Source: Chloroflexota bacterium
Lineage (GTDB): Bacteria; Chloroflexota; Dehalococcoidia; Lucifugimonadales; GCA-2719675
Length of the DNA stretch: 64,000 bases
Direction of reading: 5' to 3'
Assembly: GCA_002719675.1 (NCBI GenBank)
Contig: PBID01000019.1
Coordinates: 38,556 to 102,555, forward strand
The stretch's first letter is position 1. The number at the start of each line of letters is the position of its first letter. Under the pieces are notes generated by a model. The model did no database searches and was not told the origin of the DNA. It saw only the letters and a program-made list of their open reading frames with translations. The position numbers and the translations under genes are program-made. Positions 4,306-61,786 of this stretch are shown piece by piece.

Positions 4306-4343
4306 CTTTTGAGAGATTTGATGATAGTTCTAATGGTGTTGAT

Positions 4344-5135: not shown

Positions 5136-5163
5136 TAGTTGTATTTAATATGAAAGTGTTAGA

Positions 5164-5739: not shown

Positions 5740-5744
5740 TTATG

Positions 5745-6515: not shown

Positions 6516-6699
6516 TGTAACTCCACTATTTAAGATGATTTTTTATATACTTCAACAATATTAATTTAACTTCATTTTTTCAACAAGTAATAGAGTATTT
6601 ATATCAATTGATATGATTAGATATTGTTAGGATAAATGAATGATTGTATGTGATAATTGGTATAGAATATCAATCAATATTGTTAATTAGGAGTTACAA

Positions 6700-7677: not shown

Positions 7678-7701
7678 TCTTGGAATATGGAGAATTCGTA
7701 A

Positions 7702-8817
7702 ATGTATGATGTTTTTCAAGAAGCTGAAAAACAATTAAAGTTGAAAAACCCTTTTGTTATTTCAACGGTGATTAAAACAAAAGGTTCAACTCCCCAAAAA
7801 CCAGGAGCCAAATTGTTAGTTTCTAGTTCTGGTGATGGTACTGGTACTTTGGGTGGAGGTTGCGTAGAAGGAGATATATGGTTTGAATCAGAAGAATTAA
7901 TAAAAAATAATGGGAGTGCGTTTTATAGAGATTATATTTTGAATGAAGATTTGGCTGCTAATGACGGACTGGTTTGTGGAGGCACAATGTATTTTTTGTT
8001 AGACCTTTTGGATCAATCATCTATTAGTTCAAAATATATTTCAGAAATTAATAATGCTTATACTGGAGGCCCTGCTGTATTAGTGGCTACCTTAATTAAA
8101 CCTTCAATTGATAATAATTTACCGATTGGTTCAAAGTTGTTTATTCGTGAAGATGGTACTTCAGATGGAACTCTTGGAAGTTTAGAAGCTGACTCTTTAG
8201 CGGTAATTAAATCTGAAGGGCTAATGGATTTGGGGAATAATGAATTTGTTATAACGCAAGACGGCACAGAATTTTTTATGGAAGCTTATACAAGCCCACC
8301 CCAGGTAATTTTGGTAGGTGGCGGCCATGTTTCCAAGGCTATTTCTCCTTTAGTACACAATTTGGGTTTCAGAGTTACTGTTACTGATGATCGATCTGAA
8401 TTTGCAAATATAGAAAGATTTAGTGAAGCTGAAAATGTTTTGGTTGCAGATCCTAAAGAGGCATTCAAAAAGTTAAAAATTAATAAAAATTCTTATATCT
8501 TAATTGCAACAAGAGGACATAAATACGATAATTTAGCTTTGGAAATGGCAGTAAATACTTCAGCAAGATATGTTGGTTTATTAGGGAGTAAAAGAAAAGC
8601 GATATTAATTTTAAGAGAATTGGTTGATAAAGGAATACCTATTGAAAGAGTTAGAGAAGTTAGATCTCCTGCAGGATTGAATATTCACGCTAGAACTCCT
8701 GATGAAATAGCTATCAGTATAGTTTCTGAAATGTTACTATTTAGGTTAGGTGGTGATGGTTCTCCTATGAAATTAGATGAATCTTATTATCATCAATTAA
8801 CTAAAAATCAGGTTTAG
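7702..8817 (+). CDS. XdhC/CoxI-family molybdenum-hydroxylase maturation factor
   Basis: N-terminal XdhC_CoxI-like 'VIKTKGSTPQKPGAKLLV...GGGCVEG' and C-terminal Rossmann-like 'VILVGGGHVSKA...IATRGHKYD'. Confidence 0.85.
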   Translation: MYDVFQEAEKQLKLKNPFVISTVIKTKGSTPQKPGAKLLVSSSGDGTGTLGGGCVEGDIWFESEELIKNNGSAFYRDYILNEDLAANDGLVCGGTMYFLLDLLDQSSISSKYISEINNAYTGGPAVLVATLIKPSIDNNLPIGSKLFIREDGTSDGTLGSLEADSLAVIKSEGLMDLGNNEFVITQDGTEFFMEAYTSPPQVILVGGGHVSKAISPLVHNLGFRVTVTDDRSEFANIERFSEAENVLVADPKEAFKKLKINKNSYILIATRGHKYDNLALEMAVNTSARYVGLLGSKRKAILILRELVDKGIPIERVREVRSPAGLNIHARTPDEIAISIVSEMLLFRLGGDGSPMKLDESYYHQLTKNQV

Positions 8818-8867
8818 TAACAGTTTTTTGTGCTAAATATATCATCATATAGTTTGATTTAAGAATA

Positions 8868-9464
8868 ATGGCCAATTTTGTTTCAGCAATTCTGTTGTCA
8901 GCTGGTAAATCTACAAGAATGGGATCTCCCAAAGCTCTTTTAGATTGGCAAGGAATTCCTTTGATTCAATATCAAATACAGAATTTGATCGATGGTGGTG
9001 TTTCGCAAGTAATTGTAGTTCTTGGACATAATTCTAAAGAAATTTCAAAATTTATTTGCAGTAGTAAAGCAAAATTTTTAATTAATGACGAATATCAAGA
9101 AGGTAAAGTTACAAGTATTCTTAAAGGAGTTTCAGCAGTTTCAGGAATATCCTCGGATATAATGATTTTAAGTGTAGACCAACCTAGAGATCATAAAATT
9201 ATAAACCATTTAATTAGGAGTCATTCAGATTCAAAATCTTTGATATCTGTTCCTAGTAATGGGTTTAAATCCGGTCATCCAATAATTTTTTCATACAAAC
9301 TAAAATCAAAATTAATGGAAATTTCTGAATCTAAAAAAGGCTTGAAAGCATTAATGAATGAACATCGTAATAGTTTGAACTTTGTTAATTTTCAAAATGA
9401 GATGATATTTTTAGATATTAACACGTCTGAGGAATACTTATTTTCAAAGAAAAAATTCTCTTAA
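8868..9464 (+). CDS. MobA-like NTP transferase (probable molybdenum cofactor cytidylyltransferase, MocA type)
   Basis: 'AILLSAGKSTRMGSPKALL' nucleotidyl-transferase P-loop-like motif. Located directly after xdhC. Confidence 0.75.
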   Translation: MANFVSAILLSAGKSTRMGSPKALLDWQGIPLIQYQIQNLIDGGVSQVIVVLGHNSKEISKFICSSKAKFLINDEYQEGKVTSILKGVSAVSGISSDIMILSVDQPRDHKIINHLIRSHSDSKSLISVPSNGFKSGHPIIFSYKLKSKLMEISESKKGLKALMNEHRNSLNFVNFQNEMIFLDINTSEEYLFSKKKFS

Positions 9465-10261
9465 ATTTTTGAATATTTAGGTTTTGCGGTTTGAGTTCCA
9501 TCTGGGAGAGTGTTAATAGAGAAATCACCGAAAAGGAGTGGCGCTTCTTTTGATAGCATTTCTAGTATATTGATTGCTAATTTTCTTATTTCCCAATCAG
9601 CATATCCTGCACCTCTTTGTTCTATGAAATGCCTCCAGGCACGTACATTACCAGTAACGAATATTTTAGTTTCTGTAGCATTAGGTAATATGGATCTTGC
9701 AGCTTGTCTTACTGCTTTTCTTCTATCCCATTGAGTTTCAAATAATTCTTCAGGGAGGGATTTTTCTAATTCTACTACTAGATTGCTATAAGCTTCTGTG
9801 GAGTTTTCAATCGCTTCTCGAAGTATTTTCTCACTTTCAGGATTTTGGTTTTTTGCAACGGCAGGAGGAATTACAAATGGACTATCGGATTCATCAACGA
9901 ATCTTTGAGATCTTTGAGAATATGCAAATCCTGCTCTATGCCTGACTAGTTCGTGAGTTAAGCTTCTAGAAACTCCAGTGATTACAAATCCATAATTTAC
10001 ATGTTCGAAGACACTTCCATCGCCTTTTGATAATAGATTGTTGACAAAATCTTCAATGTCTTTTCTTCCTCTGCCAAAACTCATGTAGCATAATCTAGCA
10101 GAGACTTCAATTATAGATCCAGAATCATCTTTTCCTGCCCGAATACTATCTGGTACAGGAGGAAGTTCTTCGTCCTCAAGCAAAGAAGCAATTGATTCCC
10201 AATTTACGGAAGGTTTAGAAATTAGATATATTTTAGGGTCATTTAGATATTTTTTTTTCAC
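9461..10261 (-). CDS. thyX: Flavin-dependent thymidylate synthase
   Basis: ThyX motif 'RHRAGFAYSQRSQR'. GTG start followed by an A9 run. The 3' end overlaps the convergent mocA-like gene by 4 nt. Confidence 0.92.
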   Translation of the reverse strand: MKKKYLNDPKIYLISKPSVNWESIASLLEDEELPPVPDSIRAGKDDSGSIIEVSARLCYMSFGRGRKDIEDFVNNLLSKGDGSVFEHVNYGFVITGVSRSLTHELVRHRAGFAYSQRSQRFVDESDSPFVIPPAVAKNQNPESEKILREAIENSTEAYSNLVVELEKSLPEELFETQWDRRKAVRQAARSILPNATETKIFVTGNVRAWRHFIEQRGAGYADWEIRKLAINILEMLSKEAPLLFGDFSINTLPDGTQTAKPKYSKI

Positions 10262-10293
10262 TTTTTTGCCTGAGACTTTTTTGAAGTTTGTAT

Positions 10294-11484
10294 TTAAATG
10301 TTTATAAAAGTAGGGTTTTCTAATATGTTTTTGAAAGTTTCCAAAAATTTTGCACCTTCAGCTCCATTAGCAACCCTATGGTCTCCAGATAGGGTAGTTG
10401 TCATGATATCTGCTATTACTATTTCATTTGAAGAAACTATTGGTTTTTTTGATACTGCTCCAGTAGCTAGCATACAAGTTTGGGGAGGTAAAATTATTGC
10501 TCCGAAACTTGAAATGTTATACATGCCAAGGTTGCTAATACTAAATGTTCCATCAGTATATTCTTTGGAACTTAAAGTGCCACTGTTTGATCTGTCGATT
10601 AAGTCTTTACTAGAAATTGCAATCTCTTCTAGAGATTTTTTTTCACATCCTAGTATAGCTGGAACGATTAATCCATCGGTTGTTGAAATAGCTATTCCAA
10701 TATTTATTTCGTTATGAATTTTAGGCGAGTCATTGACATAAGTAGAATTGAATTCAGGAAATTTTTTTAAAGATTCAACAGTCGCTGCAATAATTAAATC
10801 ATTGACTGAAACTTTTATTGATTTTGTTTCCAGTTTTTGATTAAGTTTACTTCTTAAATTCATTGCAACTGTCATGTCAATTTCATTTGTTAAGTAGAAA
10901 TGAGGTATTTCTCTTTTACTTTTAGTTGTTACTCTTGCAATTTGTTGTCTAACTTTATTTTGCTTTGAGTCTTGAGGGATAGATTCAGATGACACATGAG
11001 ATTTTTGGTCATTTTCTGAAGAGATTAAAAGGGTAACATCATCTCTAGTAATTCTACCTCCGGGTCCAGATCCAGAAATCGAGCTTAAATCTATGTTATT
11101 TTCATTAGCTAGTCTTCGGGCAGCAGGAGATATTTTTTTATTATTGGACTCAATTTTTTCTCGAGCATCAGGTTTTGGCAAAGAAATTTCTTCTGTTGAG
11201 TCAGTTTTTTCTGTTTCAGCTGATGTATCGGAATTGTTGATTGAATTTTCTTGAATCTCTTCTCCCTGAGAACCAATGACAATTACTGGGTCGCCTACAG
11301 GAACTATCGATCCTTCATCTACAATGATTTTTTTTACTATGCCTGCAGTAGTGGATTCAAATTCAATCACTGCTTTATCCGTTTCTATTTCAGCGATTGC
11401 TTCTCCTAGTTGAACTTCATCCCCAACTCCTTTTAGCCATCTAACTAAAGTTCCCTCTTGCATATCGTAACCCATTTGGGGCAT
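10294..11484 (-). CDS. 2-oxoacid dehydrogenase E2 (dihydrolipoamide acyltransferase)
   Basis: Lipoyl domain 'IETDKAV', E3/E1-binding 'PAARRLANENNIDL', catalytic 'SGDHRVANGAEGAKF'. A GGAGG plus in-frame CTG at 11502 may be the true start (see findings). Confidence 0.9.
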   Translation of the reverse strand: MPQMGYDMQEGTLVRWLKGVGDEVQLGEAIAEIETDKAVIEFESTTAGIVKKIIVDEGSIVPVGDPVIVIGSQGEEIQENSINNSDTSAETEKTDSTEEISLPKPDAREKIESNNKKISPAARRLANENNIDLSSISGSGPGGRITRDDVTLLISSENDQKSHVSSESIPQDSKQNKVRQQIARVTTKSKREIPHFYLTNEIDMTVAMNLRSKLNQKLETKSIKVSVNDLIIAATVESLKKFPEFNSTYVNDSPKIHNEINIGIAISTTDGLIVPAILGCEKKSLEEIAISSKDLIDRSNSGTLSSKEYTDGTFSISNLGMYNISSFGAIILPPQTCMLATGAVSKKPIVSSNEIVIADIMTTTLSGDHRVANGAEGAKFLETFKNILENPTFINI

Positions 11485-11513
11485 ATTTAGTGTAGTTGCC
11501 AGAATGCACCTCC

Positions 11514-12494
11514 CTATATAGAAAAATTTTGTTTAATTGCTGCGACTATTTTTTCTTCACTTGGTATTGTACCAAGTTCAAGTTTTCGATTGTATGGAGC
11601 TGGCACATCTTCAGATGCAATTCTAATAATTGGTCCATCTAGATAATCGAAAGCTTCTAATTGAATTGATTCACTAATGTTTGCTCCAAAACCTCCGGTT
11701 TTCCATGTTTCTTCTACGACTACGGCACGTCCTGTCTTTTTAACAGATTTAATTATTGTTTCAAAATCTAGAGGCCGCAAAGTTCTTAGGTCTATTACTT
11801 CACATTCTACATTAAAATCTTTTGATATTATTTCACTGGCCGCCATACAAGTTCTAACCATTCCTGAATAAGATATAATTGTGATAGAATCTCCACTACG
11901 TTTTATGTTTGCTTTTCCAAAAGGAATTTCAAAAAACTCATCTGGGACTTCTTCTTTTACACCATACAACAATGCATGTTCTGCAAAAACTACAGGATCT
12001 TTCTGTTTCATTGAAGTTCTAAATAATCCAAGAGCATCTTTAGGAGTTGAAGGACAAACAACTTTTAATCCTGGCACAGCTGCTAACCAACCTTCAAAAC
12101 TTTGAGAATGAGTAGCTCCCAACTGTGCTCCACCACCTGTTACAGTTCTTAGTACAAGTGGTACTTCTATTTGTCCATTGGACATATATCTGAGTTTTGC
12201 AGCATGGTTAATTAATTGATCGAATGCAAGAAGCAAAAAATTAATTGTCATAATTTCAACTATAGGCCTGAGTCCTGCAGCTGCAGCTCCAATACCTGTA
12301 CCCAAAATTACAGATTCTGAAATAGGGGTGTCAATAATTCTTTTTGGTCCAAATTTTTTTAATAACCCTGCAGTAACTGCATATGCTCCATTATAATCGC
12401 CAATATCTTCTCCCATTAAGAATACTTTTGTGTCCGATTCTAATGCTTCTATTAATCCTGTTTTAATGGATTCTCTTAATGTCAAATTACTCAT
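11514..12494 (-). CDS. 2-oxoacid dehydrogenase E1 beta subunit
   Basis: Transketolase-like pyrimidine-binding domain: 'FLMGEDIGDYNGAYAVT', 'IDTPISE', 'TIISYSGMV'. Confidence 0.93.
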   Translation of the reverse strand: MSNLTLRESIKTGLIEALESDTKVFLMGEDIGDYNGAYAVTAGLLKKFGPKRIIDTPISESVILGTGIGAAAAGLRPIVEIMTINFLLLAFDQLINHAAKLRYMSNGQIEVPLVLRTVTGGGAQLGATHSQSFEGWLAAVPGLKVVCPSTPKDALGLFRTSMKQKDPVVFAEHALLYGVKEEVPDEFFEIPFGKANIKRSGDSITIISYSGMVRTCMAASEIISKDFNVECEVIDLRTLRPLDFETIIKSVKKTGRAVVVEETWKTGGFGANISESIQLEAFDYLDGPIIRIASEDVPAPYNRKLELGTIPSEEKIVAAIKQNFSI

Positions 12495-13449
12495 TTTGAT
12501 ACACGTTTTCTAGTAATGATTCAATTTTCGGATCTGGACTGTTTTTGGCAAATTCGATGCAATCAAATATTTCAGAATCTACACTTTCTTTAATTTTAAG
12601 TATTTTTTGCTGATCAATTATTTTTTGATTGGATAGAAATTTTTCTAGTTTAATTATCGGGTCATTTTTTTGCCATTCTACAACTTCTTGAGATTTTCTA
12701 TATGAACTTGGATCTGCCATAGAATGTCCTCTGAATCTATAACACATCGCTTCTAGGAATACGGGGCCTTCCCCAGATCTAATTTTTTCAATTGATTGCT
12801 GTGTTGCTTTTTGTACCTCTAAAACATCCATTCCATCTATTTGCATAGAAGGAATTTTGTAAGAATCTGCAATTTTATAAATATCTTTTCCAGAAGATCT
12901 GGTTTTATTAACATGAGTTCCCATACCGTATAAGTTATTTTCTAGACAAAATAAAATTGGTAACTTCCATAGTGAAGCTAAATTCATAGATTCGTGAAAT
13001 TCCCCCTCGTTTACAGCTCCATCGCCCAAGAAGCATAATACAATAGAATTTTCTTCTTGGTATTTTGATGCAAACCCTAACCCACATGCTATAGGTAGCT
13101 GACCGCCAACTATTGCGTGTCCTCCCATAAATCTTTTTGAAACATCAAATATATGCATCGATCCACCTTTGCCAGCACTTGTTCCATCAGACTTCCCCAT
13201 TAGTTCACTCATAATGTTTTTTGGGTTTATTCCTCTTGCTAAAGCGTGGCCATGATCTCTGTAGTGAGTGATGATGTAATCTTTTTCAGATAGACAAGAA
13301 ATTGATCCTACAGCTATAGCTTCTTCACCTATGTATAAGTGACAGAATCCACGAATGTCACCCTCCATGTACAACCTTCCAGTTTCTTCTTCAAATCGAC
13401 GGAGAAGGAGCATGTCTTGATATAGTTTGATTGTTTTTGATTGGTCCAT
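12487..13449 (-). CDS. 2-oxoacid dehydrogenase E1 alpha subunit (TPP-dependent)
   Basis: TPP motif 'GDGAVNEGEFHESMNLASLWKLP', 'YRFRGHSMADP'. Overlaps the E1 beta start by 8 nt. Confidence 0.93.
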   Translation of the reverse strand: MDQSKTIKLYQDMLLLRRFEEETGRLYMEGDIRGFCHLYIGEEAIAVGSISCLSEKDYIITHYRDHGHALARGINPKNIMSELMGKSDGTSAGKGGSMHIFDVSKRFMGGHAIVGGQLPIACGLGFASKYQEENSIVLCFLGDGAVNEGEFHESMNLASLWKLPILFCLENNLYGMGTHVNKTRSSGKDIYKIADSYKIPSMQIDGMDVLEVQKATQQSIEKIRSGEGPVFLEAMCYRFRGHSMADPSSYRKSQEVVEWQKNDPIIKLEKFLSNQKIIDQQKILKIKESVDSEIFDCIEFAKNSPDPKIESLLENVYQNE

Positions 13450-13488
13450 ATTATAATTTTTGTAGATTATACAAGATATTTGGAAAAA

Positions 13489-14895
13489 TTACATGTGAAT
13501 TGCTTCATTATTAATGGCTAAACAGGCTTCTACAATTGATTCTGAAATTGTAGGATGTGGATGAACTGTCATAGCCAATTCTTCTTCAGTGCTCTCTAAC
13601 ATAGTTGCAATACCTAATTCACCAAGTAATTCGGTAACTTCCGGGCCAACCATATGGGCCCCTAGGATAATTCCACTTTCAGATTCAGATACGATTTTGA
13701 TCATACCTTCATTATGTCCTAATGCCATTGCTTTTCCGCTAGCAGATAAAGGAAATTTTCCGACTTTAACGGTAGACCCTTGATCTATTGCTTGTTGTTC
13801 TGTCATACCAAAACTTGCAACTTGAGGGTTTGAATATATGGCTCGAGGCATATATTCATATTTTATTGGTTCAGGAGATTGACCTGCAATGTGCTCTATA
13901 GCATGAATTCCTTGAGCTGATGCAACATGTGCTAGTAGTGTTTTCCCTGTAACGTCTCCAATTGCATAAACTCCTTTCAAATTAGTCATCATATTTTCAT
14001 CGATCGCTATGAAATTGTTATTGATTGAAATTCCAACTTCTTCAAGTCCAATATTTTTCACATTTCCTTCCATACCTACGGCAACTAAGACTATATCTGT
14101 TTCTATTTCAGAAATTTTGCCATTAGAATTAAGTTCTAGTATTGCACCTGAATTAGTTTTAGTGACTTTTTCAACTTTTGTTTGAGTTTTAATTTGTATT
14201 CCTTGCTTAATTAAAGAACGAGATAATTGTTTACTAATTTCAGCATCCTCTAGAGGAAGAATTTGATTTTGTAATTCAACTAAAGTTACATTAGTACCGA
14301 AAGCATTCCACATATAAGAAAATTCTACTCCGGTTGCTCCCGCTCCTATTATCACGGCTTTATTTGGAGACTTTTCTATTCCTAATGCATTTTTGCTGTT
14401 TAGTATGATTTTTTCATCTATTGGAAGATTTGGAATGTCTTTAAATTTTGCACCTGTAGCTATTAAAATGTTTTTAGAACTAATTTTTTGCTTGGTTTCA
14501 AGAATTTCTACTTGATTTTGACTTGTAATTCGACAGTTTCCAGGTATTAATTCAACATTGTTTTTTTTAAGAAGAAAACCTATTCCATCAGTTAGTTTTT
14601 TAACAATTTTCCTACTTCGATTAACAGCTTGCCCAAAATCAGATTTTAAATCTGAGACATATATTCCATGTTCGTTTGATTCTTTAATTAGATTTAATAT
14701 TTCAGCACTTCTAAGTAAAGATTTACTAGGTATACATCCCCAATTTAAACAAACACCTCCTAATTCATTTTTTTCTATTAGAGCAGTTTTTAAACCTAAT
14801 TGGGCAGATCTTATAGCGGCAACATACCCTCCAGGTCCGCTACCAATAATTAATACATCAAATTCAAATTGTGACAATGTAAACGCCTCCTGCAA
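13489..14895 (-). CDS. lpdA: Dihydrolipoyl dehydrogenase (E3)
   Basis: FAD motif 'IIGSGPGGYVAA', redox disulfide 'GGVCLNWGCIPSK', C-terminal 'HPHPTISE'. First gene of the operon. Confidence 0.93.
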   Translation of the reverse strand: MQEAFTLSQFEFDVLIIGSGPGGYVAAIRSAQLGLKTALIEKNELGGVCLNWGCIPSKSLLRSAEILNLIKESNEHGIYVSDLKSDFGQAVNRSRKIVKKLTDGIGFLLKKNNVELIPGNCRITSQNQVEILETKQKISSKNILIATGAKFKDIPNLPIDEKIILNSKNALGIEKSPNKAVIIGAGATGVEFSYMWNAFGTNVTLVELQNQILPLEDAEISKQLSRSLIKQGIQIKTQTKVEKVTKTNSGAILELNSNGKISEIETDIVLVAVGMEGNVKNIGLEEVGISINNNFIAIDENMMTNLKGVYAIGDVTGKTLLAHVASAQGIHAIEHIAGQSPEPIKYEYMPRAIYSNPQVASFGMTEQQAIDQGSTVKVGKFPLSASGKAMALGHNEGMIKIVSESESGIILGAHMVGPEVTELLGELGIATMLESTEEELAMTVHPHPTISESIVEACLAINNEAIHM

Positions 14896-15031
14896 AGTAG
14901 GGTTAATTTAGATAAGGATTATATCTGAATGTTATAATTTTTTCTTGTTATTTTTTCCTTTAAAATTAATATTAGTAATGATTTTTAATATAATAAGTTT
15001 TTTAAAGAATATTCAAACTTTTTACCTTTAC

Positions 15032-15060
15032 TTGAATAAAAGGTTTTTCATTGATATCAT
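15032..15060 (+). promoter_or_regulatory. Candidate sigma70-type promoter (TTGAAT-17 nt-TATCAT)
   Basis: -35 at 15032-15037 and -10 at 15055-15060 with a 17-nt spacer. The predicted TSS (~15067) coincides with the first base of the downstream helix. Promoter-like hexamers are common in AT-rich DNA. Confidence 0.35.
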
Positions 15061-15066
15061 TTTACT

Positions 15067-15151
15067 AGGCAGCCAATCTTCTTATAAGAACGGTGAGCAT
15101 GTAAAAAGTTTAGAATAGGTTGCCTTCCTTTTTCAAGGAGGGCTTTTTTTT
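15067..15151 (+). promoter_or_regulatory. Candidate transcription attenuator/riboswitch-like leader (or ~85-nt sRNA) upstream of the pantothenate operon
   Basis: Helix AGGCAGCC (15067-15074) pairs with GGTTGCCT (15118-15125): 8 bp including one G-U. Its 3' strand shares 4 nt with the 5' arm of the terminator hairpin, so the two structures are mutually exclusive. Confidence 0.4.
15122..15151 (+). terminator. Intrinsic terminator inside a 5' leader
   Basis: 9-bp stem GCCTTCCTT / AAGGAGGGC (one U-G), loop TTTC, then T8 (15144-15151). No plus-strand gene lies upstream. The next start codon is at 15209. Confidence 0.7.
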
Positions 15152-15208
15152 ATCTAAATTAATTTGTTATGCTCTGTCCTCAAAAATATTTAAATTGGAT
15201 ATTTTGCT

Positions 15209-26688: not shown

Positions 26689-27165
26689 TTAATTATTTAA
26701 CTCCACGGCATTACCCCAAATCCATCCGATTTCGCCAGTTTCATTTATTTTGATTTTCATTAGGCCGACGTGATAATTTCTAGGTCCTCCATTTTCCATT
26801 TCTATATATGAATAAAAGCAACTTGCATCTTCAATAAAAGTTACTTGAGTACCTACAGCTATTGGTGTTCCGTCAGTTTCTTTAATGAAGCAGTGTTCTA
26901 CTTTACCTTTGCCTTGCCGGACTAATCTCCTGTATTCAAAATCTGGCCATAATCTTAGAGGTAGTTCTACTCTTGGTCCTTTTCCACCTCCATCTCCATA
27001 TTGTTCAACTTCTAACGAAGGAGGAACAACGGAGCCTGGTTTTGCTGCACCTGAACTACTATCTGATGATGAACAGCTAATAACAAATAAACCTATTAAT
27101 AAAGCAAGTATTTGAAAAAGAGTCCATATTTGAACTGTTCTAATTATCTTAACTTTCAGGTTCAT
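26689..27165 (-). CDS. Small Cys-anchored secreted protein, family member A (unknown function)
   Basis: Leader with lipobox 'FVISC|SSS', an S/G-rich linker, then 'VELPLRLWPDFEY', 'HCF', 'ASCFY', 'KIKINETGEIGWIWGNAV'. Paralogous to 29700..30188, 48894..49406 and 61256..61786. Lies 36 nt downstream of the MFS gene. Confidence 0.8.
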   Translation of the reverse strand: MNLKVKIIRTVQIWTLFQILALLIGLFVISCSSSDSSSGAAKPGSVVPPSLEVEQYGDGGGKGPRVELPLRLWPDFEYRRLVRQGKGKVEHCFIKETDGTPIAVGTQVTFIEDASCFYSYIEMENGGPRNYHVGLMKIKINETGEIGWIWGNAVELNN

Positions 27166-27201
27166 AGTATTACCTTCTATTAATCATATTAATATCAAAT
27201 G

Positions 27202-28416
27202 TCATTTTTCATTAGGATTTGTAAATGATACAGGTAACAATGTTAAGAAAGCAATTAAAGAGACAATGCTTGCGAACCAAAATGCTGATTGAATATTTGA
27301 GATTTGAACAAAAAATCCTGCTAAAATTGGGGCTATTAACGTAAATGGTTGACTGAATAATCCCATGATACCCATTGAACTAGATTGGATATTTTTATCA
27401 GCTATATCCATGATTGCAGAAGTTGCGATATTTGAAACTGCGTAAAAGAATAAACCTATTGATGAAATTACTATGCCAAGTTGAATTGAGTTGTTAGAAA
27501 TTATTAACCCTAAGTACAATAATGATAATAACCCGTAACTGGGAGCTAGAACCATTTTTCTACCATATTTATCTGAAGCTACACCCATAATTGGTTGTGA
27601 AATCATTCCTAGAACATATAGTAAAGTTAGGTAAATACCTAGAACAAATGAGGAATATCCTAAGGTTTCGCTGATGTAAATTGGAAGAAATGTTTGTATC
27701 ACAAGTCTTCCCATCAATATGAAAGAATAAGAGGCCATAATACTGATTGTTTGAATACTAGAAGCTAGTTTTTTAATATCTGATAAATAATTTTTGAATT
27801 CTTTTTTTTCATTTTGCCATCGATAAGCTTTAATTACACTAAAAGAAATTATTAATCCAGCAACGATTGATGCGGGGAAATGTAGCATCATGATATTTTG
27901 CCAAGAGAATTGAAGGAACAATGCACCTACAATTATTGGTCCTAAAGAATCCCCTATACTTGCTCCTACACCATGGATTGATAAAGCGGTGCCACGATTA
28001 TTGGGATATGTTATTGAAAGAGCTCCAATTCCTGCAGGATGCCATAAGGCTGTACCAAATCCTATTACAGCAGAGGCTAAAATTGCTATAGAATATGAGT
28101 TTGTAACACCCATTAAAAAATATCCACTTCCAAAAGACATTATGGCGCTGAATAAAATTAAGGATGTATAGCGCCTGTATGAGTCAGCTATAAAACCTGA
28201 AGGTAAGTTTAAGCCAGTCATTGAAGATTGCCTAATTGATGATAAAACTCCAATTTGAACGTCTGAAAGAGATAAACTCGATTTTACAAATGGCAAAATT
28301 AATGAAAACAAACCTTGATACCAATGAACAATTGTGTGCCCAAAAGTCAGAGTGATTAACAGCATTTTTTTTGATAAAAATGAGTTATCTATTTCTTTTA
28401 TTTTATCTGAATGCAT
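27202..28416 (-). CDS. MFS transporter
   Basis: 404 aa, about 12 hydrophobic segments. MFS loop motifs 'GFIADSYRRY' and 'ASDKYGRK'. Confidence 0.85.
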   Translation of the reverse strand: MHSDKIKEIDNSFLSKKMLLITLTFGHTIVHWYQGLFSLILPFVKSSLSLSDVQIGVLSSIRQSSMTGLNLPSGFIADSYRRYTSLILFSAIMSFGSGYFLMGVTNSYSIAILASAVIGFGTALWHPAGIGALSITYPNNRGTALSIHGVGASIGDSLGPIIVGALFLQFSWQNIMMLHFPASIVAGLIISFSVIKAYRWQNEKKEFKNYLSDIKKLASSIQTISIMASYSFILMGRLVIQTFLPIYISETLGYSSFVLGIYLTLLYVLGMISQPIMGVASDKYGRKMVLAPSYGLLSLLYLGLIISNNSIQLGIVISSIGLFFYAVSNIATSAIMDIADKNIQSSSMGIMGLFSQPFTLIAPILAGFFVQISNIQSAFWFASIVSLIAFLTLLPVSFTNPNEK

Positions 28417-28431
28417 GTGATGTTGTGTTTT

Positions 28432-28638
28432 TTAAGGAATCTTTTTTTTCAATTGTTCTAAAATTTCATACCATTTTAGAGGTCTTTTATTGCTTTCTCT
28501 AGAAACATGCCAACCGTCATGTCTTTGACACCAATATGAAACTAGGGTTTCTTTGACCAATGGATCTTTGTTAAATTGATCTATAAAAGTTTCCACCATT
28601 TTTTTTGATTTAAATCTTTTTTTTTCTTGGCAACCCAT
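28432..28638 (-). CDS. Hypothetical small basic protein (68 aa)
   Basis: ORF 15 nt upstream of the MFS gene. Lys/Arg-rich with a 'YWCQRHDGWHVS' segment. No confident family and no visible RBS. Confidence 0.4.
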   Translation of the reverse strand: MGCQEKKRFKSKKMVETFIDQFNKDPLVKETLVSYWCQRHDGWHVSRESNKRPLKWYEILEQLKKKIP

Positions 28639-28773
28639 AATTAATTAATATAACACCTTTAGTTTATATAAATATACTTCTTTAAAGTAGATGTGCAGAC
28701 ATAATATATATTTGATGAATAATCTTTAGTAAAATTTGATGGGAAATTTCATTAGTTTTTATGAGTTCAAAAT

Positions 28774-29670
28774 TTGAGTAATTATGCAATCATTTTAGTT
28801 TTATTTTCTGCCTTTGCACATTCTTCTTGGAATTTTTTAGTTAAACGATCTGATAATCCAAGTTTTTCAGTGATTGGTTTAAGCTTTTTTTCTCTTGCAA
28901 TTAATATAGGTATTTCTTTTTTATTTGGTGTAGTTGAAAGTATAGATTCAAGAGCATGGCCCTATATGATTTCTACTGTTGTAATTCATGCGATATATTT
29001 TGTTTTATTAGGCAAAGCTTATAGATATAGTGATCTTTCTTCAGTATATCCGATTGCAAGAGGCATTGGGTTGGCGGGGGTACCAATTTTAGCTAGCATT
29101 TTTACAGGTGATATTGTTTCAATTCAAGGTATATTTGGGATATTACTTATTTTAATAGGAGTTATGTTGGTTGGTGTTTTTGATAAAGGTAGTTTAGGTA
29201 GTTTGAAACAGCTTTTTTCATTTTTGGATATGTTTCAAAAAAATATTTCAAGAGGATTAATGTTTTCTTTAGGTACTGGCTTAGTTATATCGACATATTC
29301 AATAATTGATAGTGTTGCAGTTTCTTTAATGAATCCATTGTTGTATATGAATTTTGTTTTTGGAGGGGGGATTTTTGGTGTAATTTTTTTAATTTGGAGA
29401 AAAGAATATAACTTATCTAGCATTAAAACAGAAATGTATTCTAGTTGGAAATTATTCCTCATTGGTGGAATTTGTAGTTGTTTTGCATATATTTTAGTTT
29501 TGCAAGCATATACACTTAGCCAAGTAAGCTATGTGGCGCCTTTTAGAGAAATTGGTGTAGCTTTCGGAGTTTTGTTAGGCTATATTGCTTTAAGAGAAAA
29601 AATTAGTTATATCAAGGTTCTTGGTGTTGGAAGCATATTGGTCGGGGCTGTTATTATTTCGCTGTCTTAA
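28774..29670 (+). CDS. EamA/DMT-superfamily transporter
   Basis: 298 aa, about 10 hydrophobic segments in two similar halves, 'YPIARG' and 'APFREIGVAFGVLLGYIALRE' EamA-like ends. TTG start. Confidence 0.8.
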   Translation: MSNYAIILVLFSAFAHSSWNFLVKRSDNPSFSVIGLSFFSLAINIGISFLFGVVESIDSRAWPYMISTVVIHAIYFVLLGKAYRYSDLSSVYPIARGIGLAGVPILASIFTGDIVSIQGIFGILLILIGVMLVGVFDKGSLGSLKQLFSFLDMFQKNISRGLMFSLGTGLVISTYSIIDSVAVSLMNPLLYMNFVFGGGIFGVIFLIWRKEYNLSSIKTEMYSSWKLFLIGGICSCFAYILVLQAYTLSQVSYVAPFREIGVAFGVLLGYIALREKISYIKVLGVGSILVGAVIISLS

Positions 29671-29699
29671 TTTATAGAATATAGAAAGGATTAATTATC

Positions 29700-30188
29700 A
29701 TGAAGTTTTTGATGTTTTTCGTTTTGTCGTTATGTATTGGATTAAATTTTGCATGTTCTTCAAATGATTCTTCTGAAAGCAATCTGCCTGCTATTACTAA
29801 AAAACCTATTGTAATAGTTAACCCAACCAGTCGTTTGGCGAATCAAGATAGAGGAGGATCGTCTAGAAATAAAGCTTTAGATCGTGAAGTTGAGTTGCCT
29901 ATGAAACTTTGGCAATCATTTGAATACCAAATGATTAAATTTAGAGGAGTAGGAGGAGGAGGAGGGACTCAACAAGATGAATTTTGCGTTGTTCAAGGGG
30001 AGCCTAGTGAGTTGAAAATTGGAATTTCAGTTACTGTGTTGGAAGAAGCTAGGTGTATTTTTTCACAATTTCAGGAAGATGGAGACGGATCACCTAAAAG
30101 GTATTCTGTAAGTTTAACTAAAATCAGGATTAATGATACAGGAGAAGAAGGATGGACGTGGAGCAAGGCAATTAAGCTCAATGAGTAA
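29700..30188 (+). CDS. Small Cys-anchored secreted protein, family member B (unknown function)
   Basis: Leader ending 'LNFAC|SSN', then 'VELPMKLWQSFEY', 'FCV', 'ARCIF', 'KIRINDTGEEGWTWSKAI'. Lies 29 nt after the EamA gene and 27 nt before ggt. Confidence 0.8.
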   Translation: MKFLMFFVLSLCIGLNFACSSNDSSESNLPAITKKPIVIVNPTSRLANQDRGGSSRNKALDREVELPMKLWQSFEYQMIKFRGVGGGGGTQQDEFCVVQGEPSELKIGISVTVLEEARCIFSQFQEDGDGSPKRYSVSLTKIRINDTGEEGWTWSKAIKLNE

Positions 30189-30215: not shown

Positions 30216-31877
30216 ATGTCCCAATTGAGACAACAAGATAAAGCTTCTAAGAACGGAATGGTAGTCACTCATCATAAAGAGGCTACTGATGTTGGTGCCG
30301 ATGTTTTAATATCTGGAGGAAATGCAATTGATGCGGCAATTGCTTCATGTTTAGCTGTAGGAGTTGTTCAGCCTGCATCTTCTGGTATTGGTGGAGGTGG
30401 ATATCTAGTTTATGAAATGTCTGAAAAAGGTGGAGTTATAGGATTTCCTATGCGTGGTTCTGGTTCTGCCAATACAGATTCATATAAATTGGTTGATGAA
30501 AAAGGTGGTGTAGGAGGTTTTCAATGGCATGGTGTACAAAATAACGATAATCTTGAAGGCTATAAATCGATTGCTATTCCAGGAGCTATTTCTGGTCTGT
30601 TTTTATCGCATCAGATGTTTGGAACAATCCCCATGAAAGAATTAATGGCTCCGGCTATTAAACTTGCTAGGGATGGATTTTATCCAGAATGGTACGATTT
30701 ATATGCTATAGGTTTGTATTCTGGAAAATTCACAAGATATAGCGAGTTAGCTAAAACATTTCTTCCAGATGGAGAAATGCCTAAGAGTGGAATTTTGTTT
30801 AAGCAGCCAGACCTTGCTGATACTTTAGAACATATAAGCAGGAATGGTGTAGATGAATTTTATAAAGGAGATATTGCTAAGTCTATAATCAATGAAATTC
30901 AACAAGATGGAGGATTTTTAAATTCCAAAGATATGTCTTCTTACCAATCATTTAATTGGGATAAAGGCTTAGAAATTAAATATTCTGATAATGTGGTTCG
31001 AGTCCCTCCGTTTGCTAGTGGAGGTTTAACTACCGCAATGACGTTGAAATTTTATGAGGCTATTAGAAAAACAAAATCTTTTTCTGGGAAATTAAATTCT
31101 TACATATCAGCAGCAAAAATGGCTTATTTGGATAGATTTGAATATGTTGGAGATCCTGATTTTGTTGATGTTCCTTGGGACGGGATGATTTCAGACAAAT
31201 ATATCTTTGAACGTGCAAGAGATGCTAGTGTCAATTATGAAGATTCTAAATCTGGAAATCCTTGGGAATATGATGTAAAACAAAAAGGTGAATCTATCCT
31301 GGGGAGTTATCCTTCTTTTGATTTAGGAACTACACATTTATGTGTTTATGATAAATTTAGTAATGCGGTATCTCTGACAAATACTCTTATGGGAGGATTT
31401 GGTTCTGGAATAATTCCTAAAAGTACGGGTGTAATTATGAATAATGGAATGATGTGGTTTGATCCCTTACCTGGAAGAGTTAATTCTGTGATGCCCGGTA
31501 AATTTCCATTGAATAATATGAGCCCTGGTTTAGTTTTGGATAAAAAAGGTGTTAAATTAGCATTAGGAGCAGCAGGTGGAAGGAAGATAACTAATTGTGT
31601 TAGTCAGTTAATTATTAAAATGCTAGACTCTGATATTAGCGCTCAGGAAGCTGTTGATTCACCTAGGGTAGATTGTAGTAATCCTAAAACATTACTTGAC
31701 TCTAGATATGATGAATCATTGGTAAAGGAATTGAGTTTAATTGGCAACGAGTTTGATTTTTCAGATGGAGTATTTGCACATAATTTTTCAACTCCAGCAG
31801 CTATAAAAAGAATGCCTGATGGAAATTTAACTGGTGGAGTTCACTCGTTTGGGAGAGGCTTTGTTAGAGGAGTTTAG
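30216..31877 (+). CDS. ggt: Gamma-glutamyltranspeptidase-family Ntn hydrolase (no signal peptide visible)
   Basis: 'GMVVTHHKEATDVGADVLISGGNAIDAAIA', autoprocessing nucleophile region 'GTTHLCVYD', 'GAAGGRKI'. Confidence 0.9.
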   Translation: MSQLRQQDKASKNGMVVTHHKEATDVGADVLISGGNAIDAAIASCLAVGVVQPASSGIGGGGYLVYEMSEKGGVIGFPMRGSGSANTDSYKLVDEKGGVGGFQWHGVQNNDNLEGYKSIAIPGAISGLFLSHQMFGTIPMKELMAPAIKLARDGFYPEWYDLYAIGLYSGKFTRYSELAKTFLPDGEMPKSGILFKQPDLADTLEHISRNGVDEFYKGDIAKSIINEIQQDGGFLNSKDMSSYQSFNWDKGLEIKYSDNVVRVPPFASGGLTTAMTLKFYEAIRKTKSFSGKLNSYISAAKMAYLDRFEYVGDPDFVDVPWDGMISDKYIFERARDASVNYEDSKSGNPWEYDVKQKGESILGSYPSFDLGTTHLCVYDKFSNAVSLTNTLMGGFGSGIIPKSTGVIMNNGMMWFDPLPGRVNSVMPGKFPLNNMSPGLVLDKKGVKLALGAAGGRKITNCVSQLIIKMLDSDISAQEAVDSPRVDCSNPKTLLDSRYDESLVKELSLIGNEFDFSDGVFAHNFSTPAAIKRMPDGNLTGGVHSFGRGFVRGV

Positions 31878-47932: not shown

Positions 47933-48877
47933 GTGAATATTAAAGATAATTATTATGATGTAGTTATAGCTGGACAAGGTGCAGCAGCCTTTGCGGCTGG
48001 TTTGTACGCAGCTAGATATCAAATCAAAAGTTTGATAATTGGTGAAACTTTTGGAGGAGAGACAGCAACAGGTGGTTTGATAGAAAATTATCCTGGATAT
48101 CCTGAAATTGATGGATTTGATTTAATGCTGAAATTTAAAGAACAAGTTGAAAAATACGATGTTCCTATAATTGATGACAAAGTAGATAGTGTTAAAAAAC
48201 AAGAAAATTTATTTCAAGTCAAAACATTTGGTGGAGAAATGTTTTCTGCAGGTACTGTGATTTTGGCTGTTGGTCGAAACCGCAGAACTCTTAATTTAAA
48301 AAATGAAGAAGAATGGGTTGGTAGAGGCGTATCATACTGTTCAACTTGTGATGCTCCTATGCATAAAAATAATGTTGTTGCAATAGTTGGAGGAGGGAAT
48401 GCCGCTGTGGAAGGGGCTCTTTTATTGAGTAGATATGCTTCTACAGTTTATTTGATATATCGTAAGGAAGAATTTACTAGGCCTGAGCCTATTAGTTTGC
48501 AACAATTAAATCAAAGTAAGAATATCAAGCAAGTAATGTCTACAAATGTGACACAATTGAATGGAGTAGATGGCTTAGACTCGATTTCTATAGATAAAGA
48601 ATATAATGGTGTTTCTGAAATTGATGTAGATGGAATCTTTATTGAAATTGGAGCTGACCCTAGGGTGGAAATTCCGAATCAATTAAAATTAGAATTAAAT
48701 GAAAAAAATGAAGTAATTGTTGATTCTGAAATGAGAACTAATGTAGAAGGTATTTTTGCGGCAGGAGATTTATGTAATTCTTCTGGTGATTTAAAGCAAA
48801 CAATTACAGCTGCTTCACAAGGTGCAATTGCAGCAACATCCACGTATCATTACATTATGAATTCAAAATTAGATTAA
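47933..48877 (+). CDS. trxB: Thioredoxin-disulfide reductase
   Basis: 'VVIAGQGAAAFAAGLYAAR', redox-active 'CSTCDA', 'VGGGNAAVEGA', 'FAAGD'. GTG start after GAGGTGA. Confidence 0.9.
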   Translation: MNIKDNYYDVVIAGQGAAAFAAGLYAARYQIKSLIIGETFGGETATGGLIENYPGYPEIDGFDLMLKFKEQVEKYDVPIIDDKVDSVKKQENLFQVKTFGGEMFSAGTVILAVGRNRRTLNLKNEEEWVGRGVSYCSTCDAPMHKNNVVAIVGGGNAAVEGALLLSRYASTVYLIYRKEEFTRPEPISLQQLNQSKNIKQVMSTNVTQLNGVDGLDSISIDKEYNGVSEIDVDGIFIEIGADPRVEIPNQLKLELNEKNEVIVDSEMRTNVEGIFAAGDLCNSSGDLKQTITAASQGAIAATSTYHYIMNSKLD

Positions 48878-48893
48878 CAGGAGAGAGTAAAAA

Positions 48894-49406
48894 ATGAGAA
48901 ATTTGAAAAACTATTTCTTTTATGGAGCAATTATTGTTTCATTAACTATACTTATGGCTGCTTGCTCATCAGGGGGCGGTGGTGAAGAAGGAACAATTAC
49001 CTTGATACAGCCTGTTATAGAAAGTGCTCCAGTTTCTGCTCGAAATGTAGGTGAAAAGAAATCTGATGAGAGTTTGAAACGAAAAATCGAATTACCACTT
49101 ATAATGTGGGATGCTTGGGAAGCTAAGAGATATGGTGTTGCCGGAGGAATTGACAGTGCTGGATATTTCAAACCTTCTGTTAAAGCAGATTTTTGTGCAG
49201 TCAGAGGTGATGGAACCCCTTTGGAAGTAGGAACTAAGGTTCAAGTATTAGAACATGCAGCTTGCCTATATTCCATACAATTTATAGAAGGTCAAAAAGC
49301 TCCTCAGTATATGATAGGAATGAGTAAAATTAGAGTTGTAGAGACTGGTCAGGAAGGCTGGGTATTTTCACCCGCTGTAAATAAGTTTAACGAACCAACA
49401 GAATAA
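48894..49406 (+). CDS. Small Cys-anchored secreted protein, family member C (unknown function)
   Basis: Leader 'ILMAAC|SSGGGG', then 'IELPLIMWDAWEA', 'FCAV', 'AACLY', 'KIRVVETGQEGWVFSPAV'. Lies 16 nt after trxB. Confidence 0.8.
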   Translation: MRNLKNYFFYGAIIVSLTILMAACSSGGGGEEGTITLIQPVIESAPVSARNVGEKKSDESLKRKIELPLIMWDAWEAKRYGVAGGIDSAGYFKPSVKADFCAVRGDGTPLEVGTKVQVLEHAACLYSIQFIEGQKAPQYMIGMSKIRVVETGQEGWVFSPAVNKFNEPTE

Positions 49407-49416
49407 TAACTTACTA

Positions 49417-50514
49417 TTATTGAGTACATCCTCTACCAGGGATATCTATAACTTGTTCAACTTGATTATTTCTAATTCCGACGTATTGATCCCATCTGTT
49501 CACAAGCATATCTTGGTACCAAGGGATTAATACGAAGTTATCTCCTACTTGTACGTTAGCATTAGAAATATCTAATTCACAATTTTCTGGATGCATTCCA
49601 ACTACTTTAATATTTTCAGGTGTTTCAACTTCTGGCAATTGCTTTTCTGGCCAAGAAAAAGATTTTGTACCGATATCACCAATAGCAATCTGATCGTTTT
49701 TAATAGATGTAATTGTACCTAATACTTTATTGGCTATTTTGAAATCATCCATGTAAGAGTATCTTGTGCCCATTAAAGCGTACGTTCCGCCTTCCACTTC
49801 TGTGACACCTTCTACTTGTATTGCTGAATCTATTGTAAAGGTTTCACCACTAGATACCATTTCCACATGAATACCTTCAGCTTCTATAGCACGTTTAGAT
49901 TCAACACAAATTTCCATATATTCTATACCTTCAGCTATTCTATTTTCATGTGTTGAAAACTCTGCTAAATGCTGATGGCTCATAACACCCATAAATTTTA
50001 ATCCAGGTAAGCTTGTAATCAATTTTGCTAAATATACTGATTCTTCAGACGATCTTACTCCCCCTCTTTCCATAGAAGTATCAACCTCTATCAAAATCCC
50101 CACTGTGACACCTAATTCAGAAGCAATCTTTGAAATTAATCTTGTGTTTTCTTCACCATATACACATACTTTTACATCTCCATGTAGCTGCAAAGCACAT
50201 AATCGTCTTATTTTATCTTCTGTAACAATTTGATTCGGAATCAATACATCTGTGATTCCACCTTCTACCATTACTTCAGCTTCTGATAATTTAGCTGTAC
50301 ATACACCATTTAGAGTACCCCCAGCATTGATTTGCATCATAGCTAATCTTGGGCTTTTAGTGTTTTTTGTATGCTGTCTCATTTTACAAACAGTATCTTT
50401 GTAAGTTTTATCAATAACCTTGAAATTTGATTCCATGGCATCCATGTCAATAAATAAACAAGGTGTTTCAATATCACTGATTAATGTTCCGGGGCTGGGT
50501 CTATAATTATCCAT
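49417..50514 (-). CDS. PLP-dependent enzyme with alanine-racemase-like N-domain (D-threonine aldolase / D-serine dehydratase DSD1 type)
   Basis: 'TPCLFIDMDAMESN', PLP-Lys region 'RQHTKNTKSP', C-terminal beta-domain. Confidence 0.7.
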   Translation of the reverse strand: MDNYRPSPGTLISDIETPCLFIDMDAMESNFKVIDKTYKDTVCKMRQHTKNTKSPRLAMMQINAGGTLNGVCTAKLSEAEVMVEGGITDVLIPNQIVTEDKIRRLCALQLHGDVKVCVYGEENTRLISKIASELGVTVGILIEVDTSMERGGVRSSEESVYLAKLITSLPGLKFMGVMSHQHLAEFSTHENRIAEGIEYMEICVESKRAIEAEGIHVEMVSSGETFTIDSAIQVEGVTEVEGGTYALMGTRYSYMDDFKIANKVLGTITSIKNDQIAIGDIGTKSFSWPEKQLPEVETPENIKVVGMHPENCELDISNANVQVGDNFVLIPWYQDMLVNRWDQYVGIRNNQVEQVIDIPGRGCTQ

Positions 50515-61255: not shown

Positions 61256-61786
61256 TCATTCCCGTTTCACAGCCCCTGCCCATGTCCAGCCTTCCAAACC
61301 TTTATCTTTTCCATCAAGAACTCTAACTTTAACTATAGAAGTAGGAAGTTTCAAGAGCGCAGTGCCTGGCCTCAGTAACATTGTCTTTTGACAATCATTT
61401 GAAGCAGCACCAATTATTTCCACTTTTGCTCCAATTTCAAAAGGAATACCAGGTTCTAGTTTAAATTCATTTAAGCTACAAAACTGTACCTTGCCTGCAC
61501 TTCTAGAATAATTCGACAGCGTTTCTTCCATTTCAGGCCATATACTAAGTGGTACTTTTCTTTCAATACATTTGTTTGAAATAATTCTTCTTACAAAACA
61601 ATCATCCAACTCTTGCCTAGATACACTGGAAAAATACGTCTCATCGGTTTGAACCAAAACTTTAGTACTTTGCAAGATACCAGACAAAGACGCTTGTTCT
61701 TGTGATGTTTCGGCAGTTTCTGATGAACTACAACTAATTGAAAATAACATCAACAAGAAAAAAAGAACTAATAATTTTACTTTCAT
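61256..61786 (-). CDS. Small Cys-anchored secreted protein, divergent family member D (unknown function)
   Basis: Leader 'LFSISC|SSS', then 'KVPLSIWPEME', 'FCS', 'NDCQ', 'VKVRVLDGKDKGLEGWTWAGAV'. Same order of motifs as members A-C. Confidence 0.7.
   Translation of the reverse strand: MKVKLLVLFFLLMLFSISCSSSETAETSQEQASLSGILQSTKVLVQTDETYFSSVSRQELDDCFVRRIISNKCIERKVPLSIWPEMEETLSNYSRSAGKVQFCSLNEFKLEPGIPFEIGAKVEIIGAASNDCQKTMLLRPGTALLKLPTSIVKVRVLDGKDKGLEGWTWAGAVKRE

Follow-up and report, generated by a model that had tools for sequence, protein, structure and literature searches.

An unnamed family of small, putatively exported proteins with conserved cysteine pairs in a low-GC marine lineage of SAR202 bacteria

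SAR202 bacteria rank among the most abundant marine heterotrophs. Their role in the turnover of recalcitrant dissolved organic carbon has been deduced almost entirely from paralog expansions of cytoplasmic enzymes, and to our knowledge their cell surface is essentially uncharacterized. Small lipoproteins that combine a lipobox leader with one small β domain, often with several paralogs per genome, are represented in Proteobacteria by YgdI/YgdR (DUF903) and MliC/PliC, and MliC carries a conserved disulfide. The expansions described in SAR202 concern enolase-superfamily racemases (groups I/II) and FMNOs (group III) (Saw et al., 2020, PMC6946804), and cultured SAR202 strains are monoderm, have no genes for peptidoglycan synthesis and possess an S-layer-like coat (PMC10444878). 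The subject of this analysis is the open reading frame (ORF) C, one of four members of a protein family in a 64,000-nt stretch of a Chloroflexota contig (PBID01000019.1, positions 38,556 to 102,555), of which the whole length is called the window below. This family is real, is unnamed in the databases and papers searched here, and belongs to an ecologically important and poorly characterized lineage. The four members, all intact ORFs, are located as follows.

26689-27165, minus strand: member A, 158 residues (MBK16355.1)
29700-30188, plus strand: member B, 162 residues (MBK16359.1)
48894-49406, plus strand: member C, 170 residues (MBK16377.1, CL770_06805, 'hypothetical protein')
61256-61786, minus strand: member D, 176 residues (MBK16389.1), of a deep '5-Cys' branch with an extra Cys63/Cys73 pair

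A first-pass annotation had taken these ORFs, from their sequence, to be one family for which it had no name. The relationship holds: pairwise blastp scores are 64-90 bits within the set A, B and C and 34-40 bits when D is compared with any of these three, and a profile of the family retrieves further members. When all six-frame ORFs of the window were searched with a hidden Markov model (HMM) of the four members, no fifth member was found (next match, E 0.46), and the family HMM scores member C at 132 bits. Pfam and NCBIfam give no match to the four window proteins, and when 62 members were compared permissively with Pfam (E ≤ 10), solely leader-region matches or sub-threshold KOW/DUF4969 noise came back. 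Since the similarity is significant and no Pfam or NCBIfam model matches, neither of the outcomes that the annotation had named as speaking against a new family, an insignificant alignment or a known Pfam domain, was found. All features that it had listed for ORF C are present in the sequence at their places: the leader ending in LTILMAAC followed by SSGGGGEE, then IELPLIMWDAWEA, 'FCAV', 'AACLY' and KIRVVETGQEGWVFSPAV. The identical sequence of C occurs on at least 24 marine metagenome contigs.

The family could be followed widely in metagenomes and narrowly in taxonomy. A search of 5.8 billion proteins with a profile built from the four domains yielded 76 clusters (90% identity) comprising both subtypes, with E down to 1e-38; no Pfam domain was found on those 76 clusters, and the only name on the matches was "hypothetical protein [SAR202 cluster bacterium]". 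The deposited records of A, B, C and D likewise read "hypothetical protein" of a Chloroflexi metagenome-assembled genome (MAG), where they lie on a contig of 108 kb; all public copies carry the same name. When 1.84 billion cluster representatives (50% identity) were searched exhaustively with the HMM, only 69 were obtained at E ≤ 0.001, including two false positives; P0122 (Big_7) and P0136 (Tudor-knot) were rejected as homologs, their scores being summed matches to a short repeated 'C..GAkVxI..C' motif. Copies of the four window proteins are present on as many as about 150 marine metagenome contigs. In a pattern scan of the GTDB species representatives, the SAR202 MAG OSU_TB36 was the sole match; it has at least seven family members across four loci, one of which (L003) is syntenic with the window at 23.5-36 kb and holds the orthologs of A and B. 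Because every family-bearing contig has a GC content of 30-37% and is marine, and because the organism names attached to the family are solely SAR202, Chloroflexi or Dehalococcoidia MAGs, the family is, as far as can be seen, confined to one low-GC marine SAR202 lineage. The SAR202 origin and this restriction go beyond the first-pass annotation. An earlier description of the family was not found in the SAR202 papers and other literature searched.

Members are single-domain proteins of 140-190 residues with a common layout: a basic n-region, a hydrophobic core, a Cys, a Ser/Thr/Gly-rich tether, a β-strand segment, a charged linker and a core of about 100 residues. The short β-strand segment after the tether is conserved and the charged linker that follows it is variable. 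In C, these parts are distributed as follows.

48894-48965, plus strand: signal peptide with lipobox (n-region R2/K5, hydrophobic core, L-M-A-A-C24; Cys24 codon at 48963-48965)
48966-49079, plus strand: tether, strand segment and linker, residues 25-62 (SSGGGGEE, conserved TITLIQPVIES, variable charged linker)
49080-49388, plus strand: all-β core domain, residues 63-165 (ELPLxxW, G113-x2-V116, G152-x-EGW-x-W/F)
49194-49196, plus strand: Cys101 codon TGT, first Cys of the conserved pair
49263-49265, plus strand: Cys124 codon TGC, second Cys of the conserved pair

Conservation was counted over 62 homologs, 76 sequences or 114 unique cores, and Cys and lipobox counts were made over 90 full-length members. 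P68, W72, E76, K97, C101, G113, V116, C124, K145, G152, E154, G155, W156, W158 and A161 are invariant or near-invariant. The loops at 83-96 and 131-142 are conserved inside paralog groups and differ between groups, indels included. For structure, two AlphaFold2 models were made with the family alignment. Model 1, the full-length C, is all-β with a mean pLDDT of 75.8; it has strands at 34-36 and 41-44, with pLDDT 83 at residues 31-40 and below 50 at 25-30 and 48-55. Model 2, the domain of C alone, has a mean pLDDT of 83.3 and a pTM of 0.70, and consists of seven strands and a short C-terminal helix.

The claim that all four members keep two Cys beyond the anchoring one, at equivalent positions, was borne out, and C101 and C124 align throughout. 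Cys101 is at least 90% conserved in the 62 homologs and has a column identity of 0.98 in the 114 cores, and Cys124 is invariant in the 62 and in the 76 sequences. The annotation had left it undecided whether this pair serves a structural disulfide or a redox or metal site; several features favor the former. The pair is spaced by 22-29 residues and forms no CxxC. The family falls into two deep branches, the A/B/C type with one Cys pair and the D type with an additional pair (C63/C73, DDC-x9-C) directly before the KVPLSIW motif, and this second pair, shared by D and its subfamily and absent from the first-pass annotation, is gained or lost jointly. After the leader Cys, mature proteins have two or four Cys, and the number is even in 89 of the 90 full-length members, the pattern expected if the first Cys is consumed by lipidation. 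Taken with the extracytoplasmic destination, and with the spacing and the lack of a CxxC noted above, this parity points to structural disulfides.

Substitution patterns indicate that C is a constrained, functional protein, its core under strong purifying selection. Against a 77%-identical ortholog, the overall dN/dS of C is 0.12, with dS saturated, and dN rises from 0.058 in the core domain through 0.19 in the linker to 0.48 in the leader, the fastest-evolving segment; the trxB neighbor of C has a dN of 0.067, comparable to the core. At 55% identity the family separates into about 33 groups, and A, B, C and D each belong to a different one. Orthologs of A (72% identity) and B (80% identity) occupy the same positions in OSU_TB36, which together with the separate groups shows the paralogs to be old.

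The unusual local density noted for the window proved to be a general trait of the family, for in 10 of 14 distinct contexts at least two members lie within a few kb (L001, L002, L003 with the A/B pair, L005, L009, L014, L015, L018, L025 and L031). Such frequent pairs and tandems suggest growth through local duplication, and it is a possibility that adjoining members act as heteromeric pairs. The arrangements themselves are varied. Tandem members overlap by 1 nt in L031 (66-1012) and are separated by gaps of 6-37 nt in L001 (2573-3574) and L015 (257-1121), and in L025 (225-1174) convergent members have about 11 nt between their stops. The densest cluster, L009, has five members at 3634-15166 (five in 11.5-16.5 kb), interleaved with genes for a sulfatase, an MFS transporter, a GNAT protein, an S-methyltransferase, a DAO-FAO_M-GCV_T protein (dimethylglycine/sarcosine-dehydrogenase-like) and a CN-hydrolase.

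The following mechanism would account for these properties. The Sec-type leader would end in its lipobox, Cys24 in C would be lipidated, and signal peptidase II would remove the leader. The protein would then be held at the outer face of the single cytoplasmic membrane, in a cell with an S-layer-like coat, where the Ser/Gly tether and the variable linker would carry a compact all-β domain of about 100-135 residues. A single disulfide (C101-C124 in C) would lock this domain, and in the D branch a second one would be added. Its scaffold, formed by P68, W72, E76, K97, G113, V116, K145, G152, E154, G155, W156 and W158, would bear the group-specific loops, and each paralog, arisen by local duplication, would be tuned to a different ligand or partner. 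It is this combination of conserved scaffold and group-specific loops that leads the family to be read as surface-tethered binding or recognition modules. The descriptive part of this account is very probably right. The whole, that is, membrane-tethered, disulfide-stapled small β-barrel binding modules on the surface of a monoderm cell, is put forward tentatively as the best overall explanation, and the surface binding or recognition function by itself is slightly less secure still, being drawn from architecture and analogy. A peptidoglycan-binding role is unlikely because cultured SAR202 encode no peptidoglycan synthesis, and the host cell of this lineage probably has no peptidoglycan.

As to the fold, the models hint at a small β-barrel, possibly SH3-like. 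The family motifs 'lxvGtkVxVle' and 'KIRV..tG.eGWxw..av' echo SH3b strands, and weak sub-threshold KOW matches occur in 19 of the 62 members; both are consistent with an SH3-like small barrel. With Foldseek, model 1 aligns with Src-family SH3 domains over about 55 residues at a root-mean-square deviation of 2.3 Å (probability 0.8-0.9, E about 0.6). A Foldseek search of BFVD gave nothing significant, and hhalign against YgiM alone was not significant. Membership in SH3_3 (PF08239) was considered and rejected, because no SH3 family match appeared in the 62 members at E ≤ 10 and the hhalign probability against a low-diversity SH3_3 alignment was 0.5%; the family is thus not filed under SH3b.

Lipidation of the members is likely from their leaders. 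Three members, C (LMAAC24), A (FVISC31) and D (FSISC19), qualify under a PS51257-type rule, which asks for a positively charged n-region, a hydrophobic core and [LVI]-[ASTVI]-[GAS]-C whose Cys falls within positions 15-35, and in the 76 sequences the Cys that ends the hydrophobic core is at least 90% conserved. A PDB sequence search with the profiles A2 and A4 gave weak resemblance only, to lipoprotein leaders (YfmC, pullulanase).

A number of observations weigh against the account given above. First, neither AlphaFold2 model has a Foldseek match in the PDB at E ≤ 0.001 (best E 0.26 for model 1 and 0.57 for model 2), and the SH3 matches of model 1 were not recovered with model 2, which has the higher confidence and matches only low-probability small barrels such as Cren7, SH3 and CarD-N. 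In addition, hhalign of A4 against a YgiM-derived SH3_3 alignment gave a probability of 0.5% and an E of 0.12, a weak test given that this reference consists of close enterobacterial fragments of low diversity. Second, B (LNFAC19) fails the lipobox rule owing to Asn at -3, only 45 of the 90 members satisfy the strict rule, and Asn occupies position -1 in 28 of the 90 (D branch, for example P0013, P0028 and P0047), so that, given B and the Asn -1 variants, lipidation is not certain for every member. Third, the envelope data come from group Ia strains with 52% GC, as against 33% GC in the lineage examined here (PMC10444878). Fourth, the adjacency of A and B to transporter genes is not a family-wide feature and, in a genome rich in MFS genes, could be fortuitous. 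Finally, the binding role is argued from architecture and analogy.

Among the rival explanations, the one that survives best is an envelope-structural role, in which the proteins would be anchors or spacers that link the cytoplasmic membrane to the S-layer-like coat or organize a pseudo-periplasm, and not ligand-specific binders. A lipobox, a flexible tether and a rigid disulfide-locked domain would suit such a task, and in cells without peptidoglycan genes an outer protein layer needs anchoring (PMC10444878). The lack of a conserved metabolic partner gene would fit as well, and the invariant Trp/Glu/Lys/Gly-Trp surface could dock one common partner. On the other side, at least seven deeply diverged paralogs per genome with group-specific loops exceed the needs of a simple anchor, and no S-layer gene was seen beside any member. 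This role is considered unlikely, while retaining some plausibility.

It is improbable that the proteins are not lipoproteins at all and that the leader either stays uncleaved as a membrane anchor or is a conventional type-I signal peptide, the conserved Cys having another role. Such a view would draw on the shortfall from the strict lipobox and on the Asn at -1 and, in B, at -3; moreover, neither lgt nor lspA was noticed in the window, where no search was aimed at them. Yet the Cys at the end of the hydrophobic core persists while the remaining leader drifts fast, a Ser/Thr/Gly-rich stretch always follows it, and the even number of remaining Cys looks as if the first had been lipidated. The D-branch consensus, LF-x-I-N-C-[ST]-S, breaks the classical [GAS] rule and keeps the Cys. 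Lipoproteins of spirochaetes offer a precedent for Asn at -1, and the Asn -1 lipoboxes may reflect a relaxed specificity of signal peptidase II in the SAR202 lineage.

Some gene neighborhoods raise a bolder version of the binding-module reading, in which the proteins would be capture or specificity modules for secondary transporters (MFS, DMT/EamA) and for the expanded SAR202 catabolic enzymes. A lies 36 nt 3′ of a co-directional MFS transporter gene (27202-28416), and B is flanked by an EamA/DMT transporter gene (28774-29670), which ends 29 nt before it, and by a gamma-glutamyltransferase (GGT) gene (30216-31877), which follows after 27 nt. At 26689-30188 of the window, a shared 357-nt region is the starting point of two divergent mirror units, [A <- MFS <- small ORF] and [EamA -> B -> GGT], and this arrangement is conserved in OSU_TB36 (L003). 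The small ORF, of 68 residues (MGCQEKKRFKSKKMVETFIDQFNKDPLVKETLVSYWCQRHDGWHVSRESNKRPLKWYEILEQLKKKIP, 28432-28638, minus strand), lies inside the divergent region, co-directional with the MFS gene. Its conservation in OSU_TB36 (L003 4637-4846) is about 78%, and it may represent a short gene that has escaped annotation. Terminator-like sites were found neither in the gaps around B nor between members and their upstream genes, and these predictions are uninformative because promoter and terminator counts were at or below shuffle expectation. D is located between a DHDPS-family gene and a DegT-family aminotransferase gene, and neighbors in other contexts include MR_MLE enolases, a sulfatase, a CN-hydrolase, GNAT, DUF1365, GFO_IDH_MocA and NHL-repeat proteins, and further members. 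In about 15 distinct contexts inspected, no conserved partner gene recurs beyond shared synteny. The capture idea is offered as a long shot.

More doubtful still is that the family consists of inhibitor or immunity lipoproteins, resembling MliC/PliC or protease inhibitors, which would neutralize secreted hydrolases or toxins, with paralogs tracking different threats. Size, β-barrel character, disulfide, lipid tether and the diversification of paralogs through variable loops would all agree with it. Pfam, however, gives no match to MliC/PliC, DUF903 or another inhibitor model in the 62 members at E ≤ 10, and none to MliC/PliC or DUF903 in the four window proteins, and PADLOC gives no match either. 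A scan of viral contigs (IMG/VR) revealed no relative, the strong purifying selection and stable synteny do not look like arms-race turnover, and a lysozyme target is unlikely in a cell that lacks peptidoglycan. A role as an anti-phage defense or phage-exclusion lipoprotein was rejected separately, PADLOC, the BFVD Foldseek search and IMG/VR all being negative and PHROGs giving leader-region matches only (E > 0.1).

The position of C directly behind a thioredoxin reductase gene raises a further alternative, that the Cys pair is redox- or metal-active and that the state of C depends on the TrxB system. The junction comprises the following features.

47933-48877, plus strand: trxB-like gene upstream of C (TAA stop at 48875-48877)
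48880-48883, plus strand: Shine-Dalgarno-like GGAG within the trxB-C spacer, 10 nt 5′ of the ATG of C

The spacer of 16 nt (48878-48893) that the first-pass annotation had given was recovered from the sequence. The trxB-like protein matches Pfam Pyr_redox_2 (E 6e-41) and, over its full length, TIGR01292 (thioredoxin-disulfide reductase; E 1e-87, 294 bits, short of the strict equivalog cut-off of 343 bits); its redox motif is CSTC, as compared with the canonical CATC, and its product could be a TrxB that has diverged or else some related flavoprotein disulfide reductase. No terminator-like site was found between the two genes, and they probably form one transcription unit. On the other side of C, a convergent Ala_racemase_N/3-hydroxy-D-aspartate-aldolase-like gene (49417-50514, minus strand) has its stop 10 nt from that of C (49404-49406), and no terminator-like structure was found at this junction (49404-49417) on either strand.

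In favor of the redox or metal alternative are this close spacing with a ribosome-binding site of C's own, the near-invariance of the two Cys, and the fact that the trxB adjacency is kept in every C ortholog seen (at least 77% identity). These orthologs all lie in wholly syntenic regions, and trxB was not found beside the nearest out-group relatives of C (about 40% identity) or beside any other paralog. The best explanation for an adjacency limited in this way to one syntenic ortholog group is the tight packing of genes in a streamlined genome, with co-transcription possible, and not a functional redox partnership; the suspicion of coincidence voiced in the first-pass annotation is thereby strengthened. 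Moreover, C bears an export signal and TrxB is cytoplasmic, no conserved His or Met is present to complete a metal site, and the additional pair of the D branch is the pattern of structural disulfides. A thioredoxin-fold or Dsb-type oxidoreductase was rejected on the grounds of the missing CxxC, the all-β fold and the absence of a thioredoxin-family Pfam match. The redox or metal alternative is accordingly given very little chance. In L005, a gene flagged 'Thioredoxin_8 (weak)' (13230-13790) lies 51 nt 5′ of a D-type member; Cys is absent from its called product and a few very short ORFs lie before it, so that it may be a truncated or frameshifted TlpA-like gene and is uninformative here.

Least probable of all is a classical SH3b (SH3_3-type) cell-wall-binding domain on a lipoprotein, which the motif echoes, the SH3 matches of model 1 and the weak KOW matches would support, and against which stand the missing SH3_3 match, the poor hhalign result against a low-diversity alignment, the lack of SH3 matches for model 2 and the lack of peptidoglycan synthesis in SAR202.

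The window contains two further ORFs with lipobox-like leaders. One (2992-3924, minus strand, 310 residues) has a lipobox leader (LFLIAC followed by TG), then a collagen-like G-X-Y tract of about 80 residues, and a C-terminal part of about 200 residues rich in Ala/Ser/Gly/Thr/Val; such a collagen-like putative surface lipoprotein is unusual for a streamlined genome of 33% GC. The other (5164-5739, plus strand, 191 residues) contains six Cys in addition to a lipobox-like leader (LIISC followed by VSS), has no relation to the family (HMM E 2.3), and may be another exported Cys-rich protein. The only RNA gene in the window is a tRNA-Arg(CCT) (4234-4306, plus strand; Rfam and ARAGORN), and Rfam and tRNA scans of the window gave no RNA element near the family members besides it.

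Metagenomes contain many orphan families of exported proteins, of which this family is one, and nothing surprising in its mechanism has been demonstrated. With at least seven copies per genome, strong conservation and predicted export in one streamlined low-GC lineage, it would nevertheless be a defined component of the SAR202 surface. The proteins are small and should express easily, and would offer a practical entry for structural and ligand-binding work. If the paralogs bind different substrates or partners, this would help to explain niche specialization in the low-GC SAR202 lineage; if they are envelope anchors, they would inform how a wall-less monoderm holds its coat. Should the capture-module idea be true, the family would be a miniature, disulfide-stapled analog of solute-binding proteins for wall-less, S-layer-only cells, the loops of its paralogs would read different classes of dissolved organic matter, and the units [A <- MFS] and [EamA -> B -> GGT], conserved in two SAR202 genomes, would be the founding example. 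The family merits a DUF entry, so that the deposited copies cease to be orphan "hypothetical proteins".

Among known systems, the SH3-like small barrels (SH3_3/SH3b, KOW and Tudor-type) are alike in being small and all-β and in having a C-terminal 'G-x-x-G-W-x-W' strand-turn-strand and a 'G-x-k-V-x-V-l' strand. The family domain differs in that it exceeds them by about 40-70 residues and has additional N-terminal strands, a hairpin insertion and one or two predicted disulfides; it has no significant sequence or profile relationship to these barrels, and its host probably has no peptidoglycan. The likeness to YgdI/YgdR and MliC/PliC is one of architecture only, since the conserved motifs, the phylum and the envelope are different, the family belonging to monoderm Chloroflexota. 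Closest in evolutionary pattern are the enzyme expansions of SAR202 (PMC6946804): like them, the family is ancient, lineage-specific and multi-copy, and some of its members adjoin expanded catabolic genes (MR_MLE enolases in L001 and L018). Those expansions, however, consist of cytoplasmic enzymes with known folds, whereas the present family consists of small, putatively exported proteins that do not look like enzymes.

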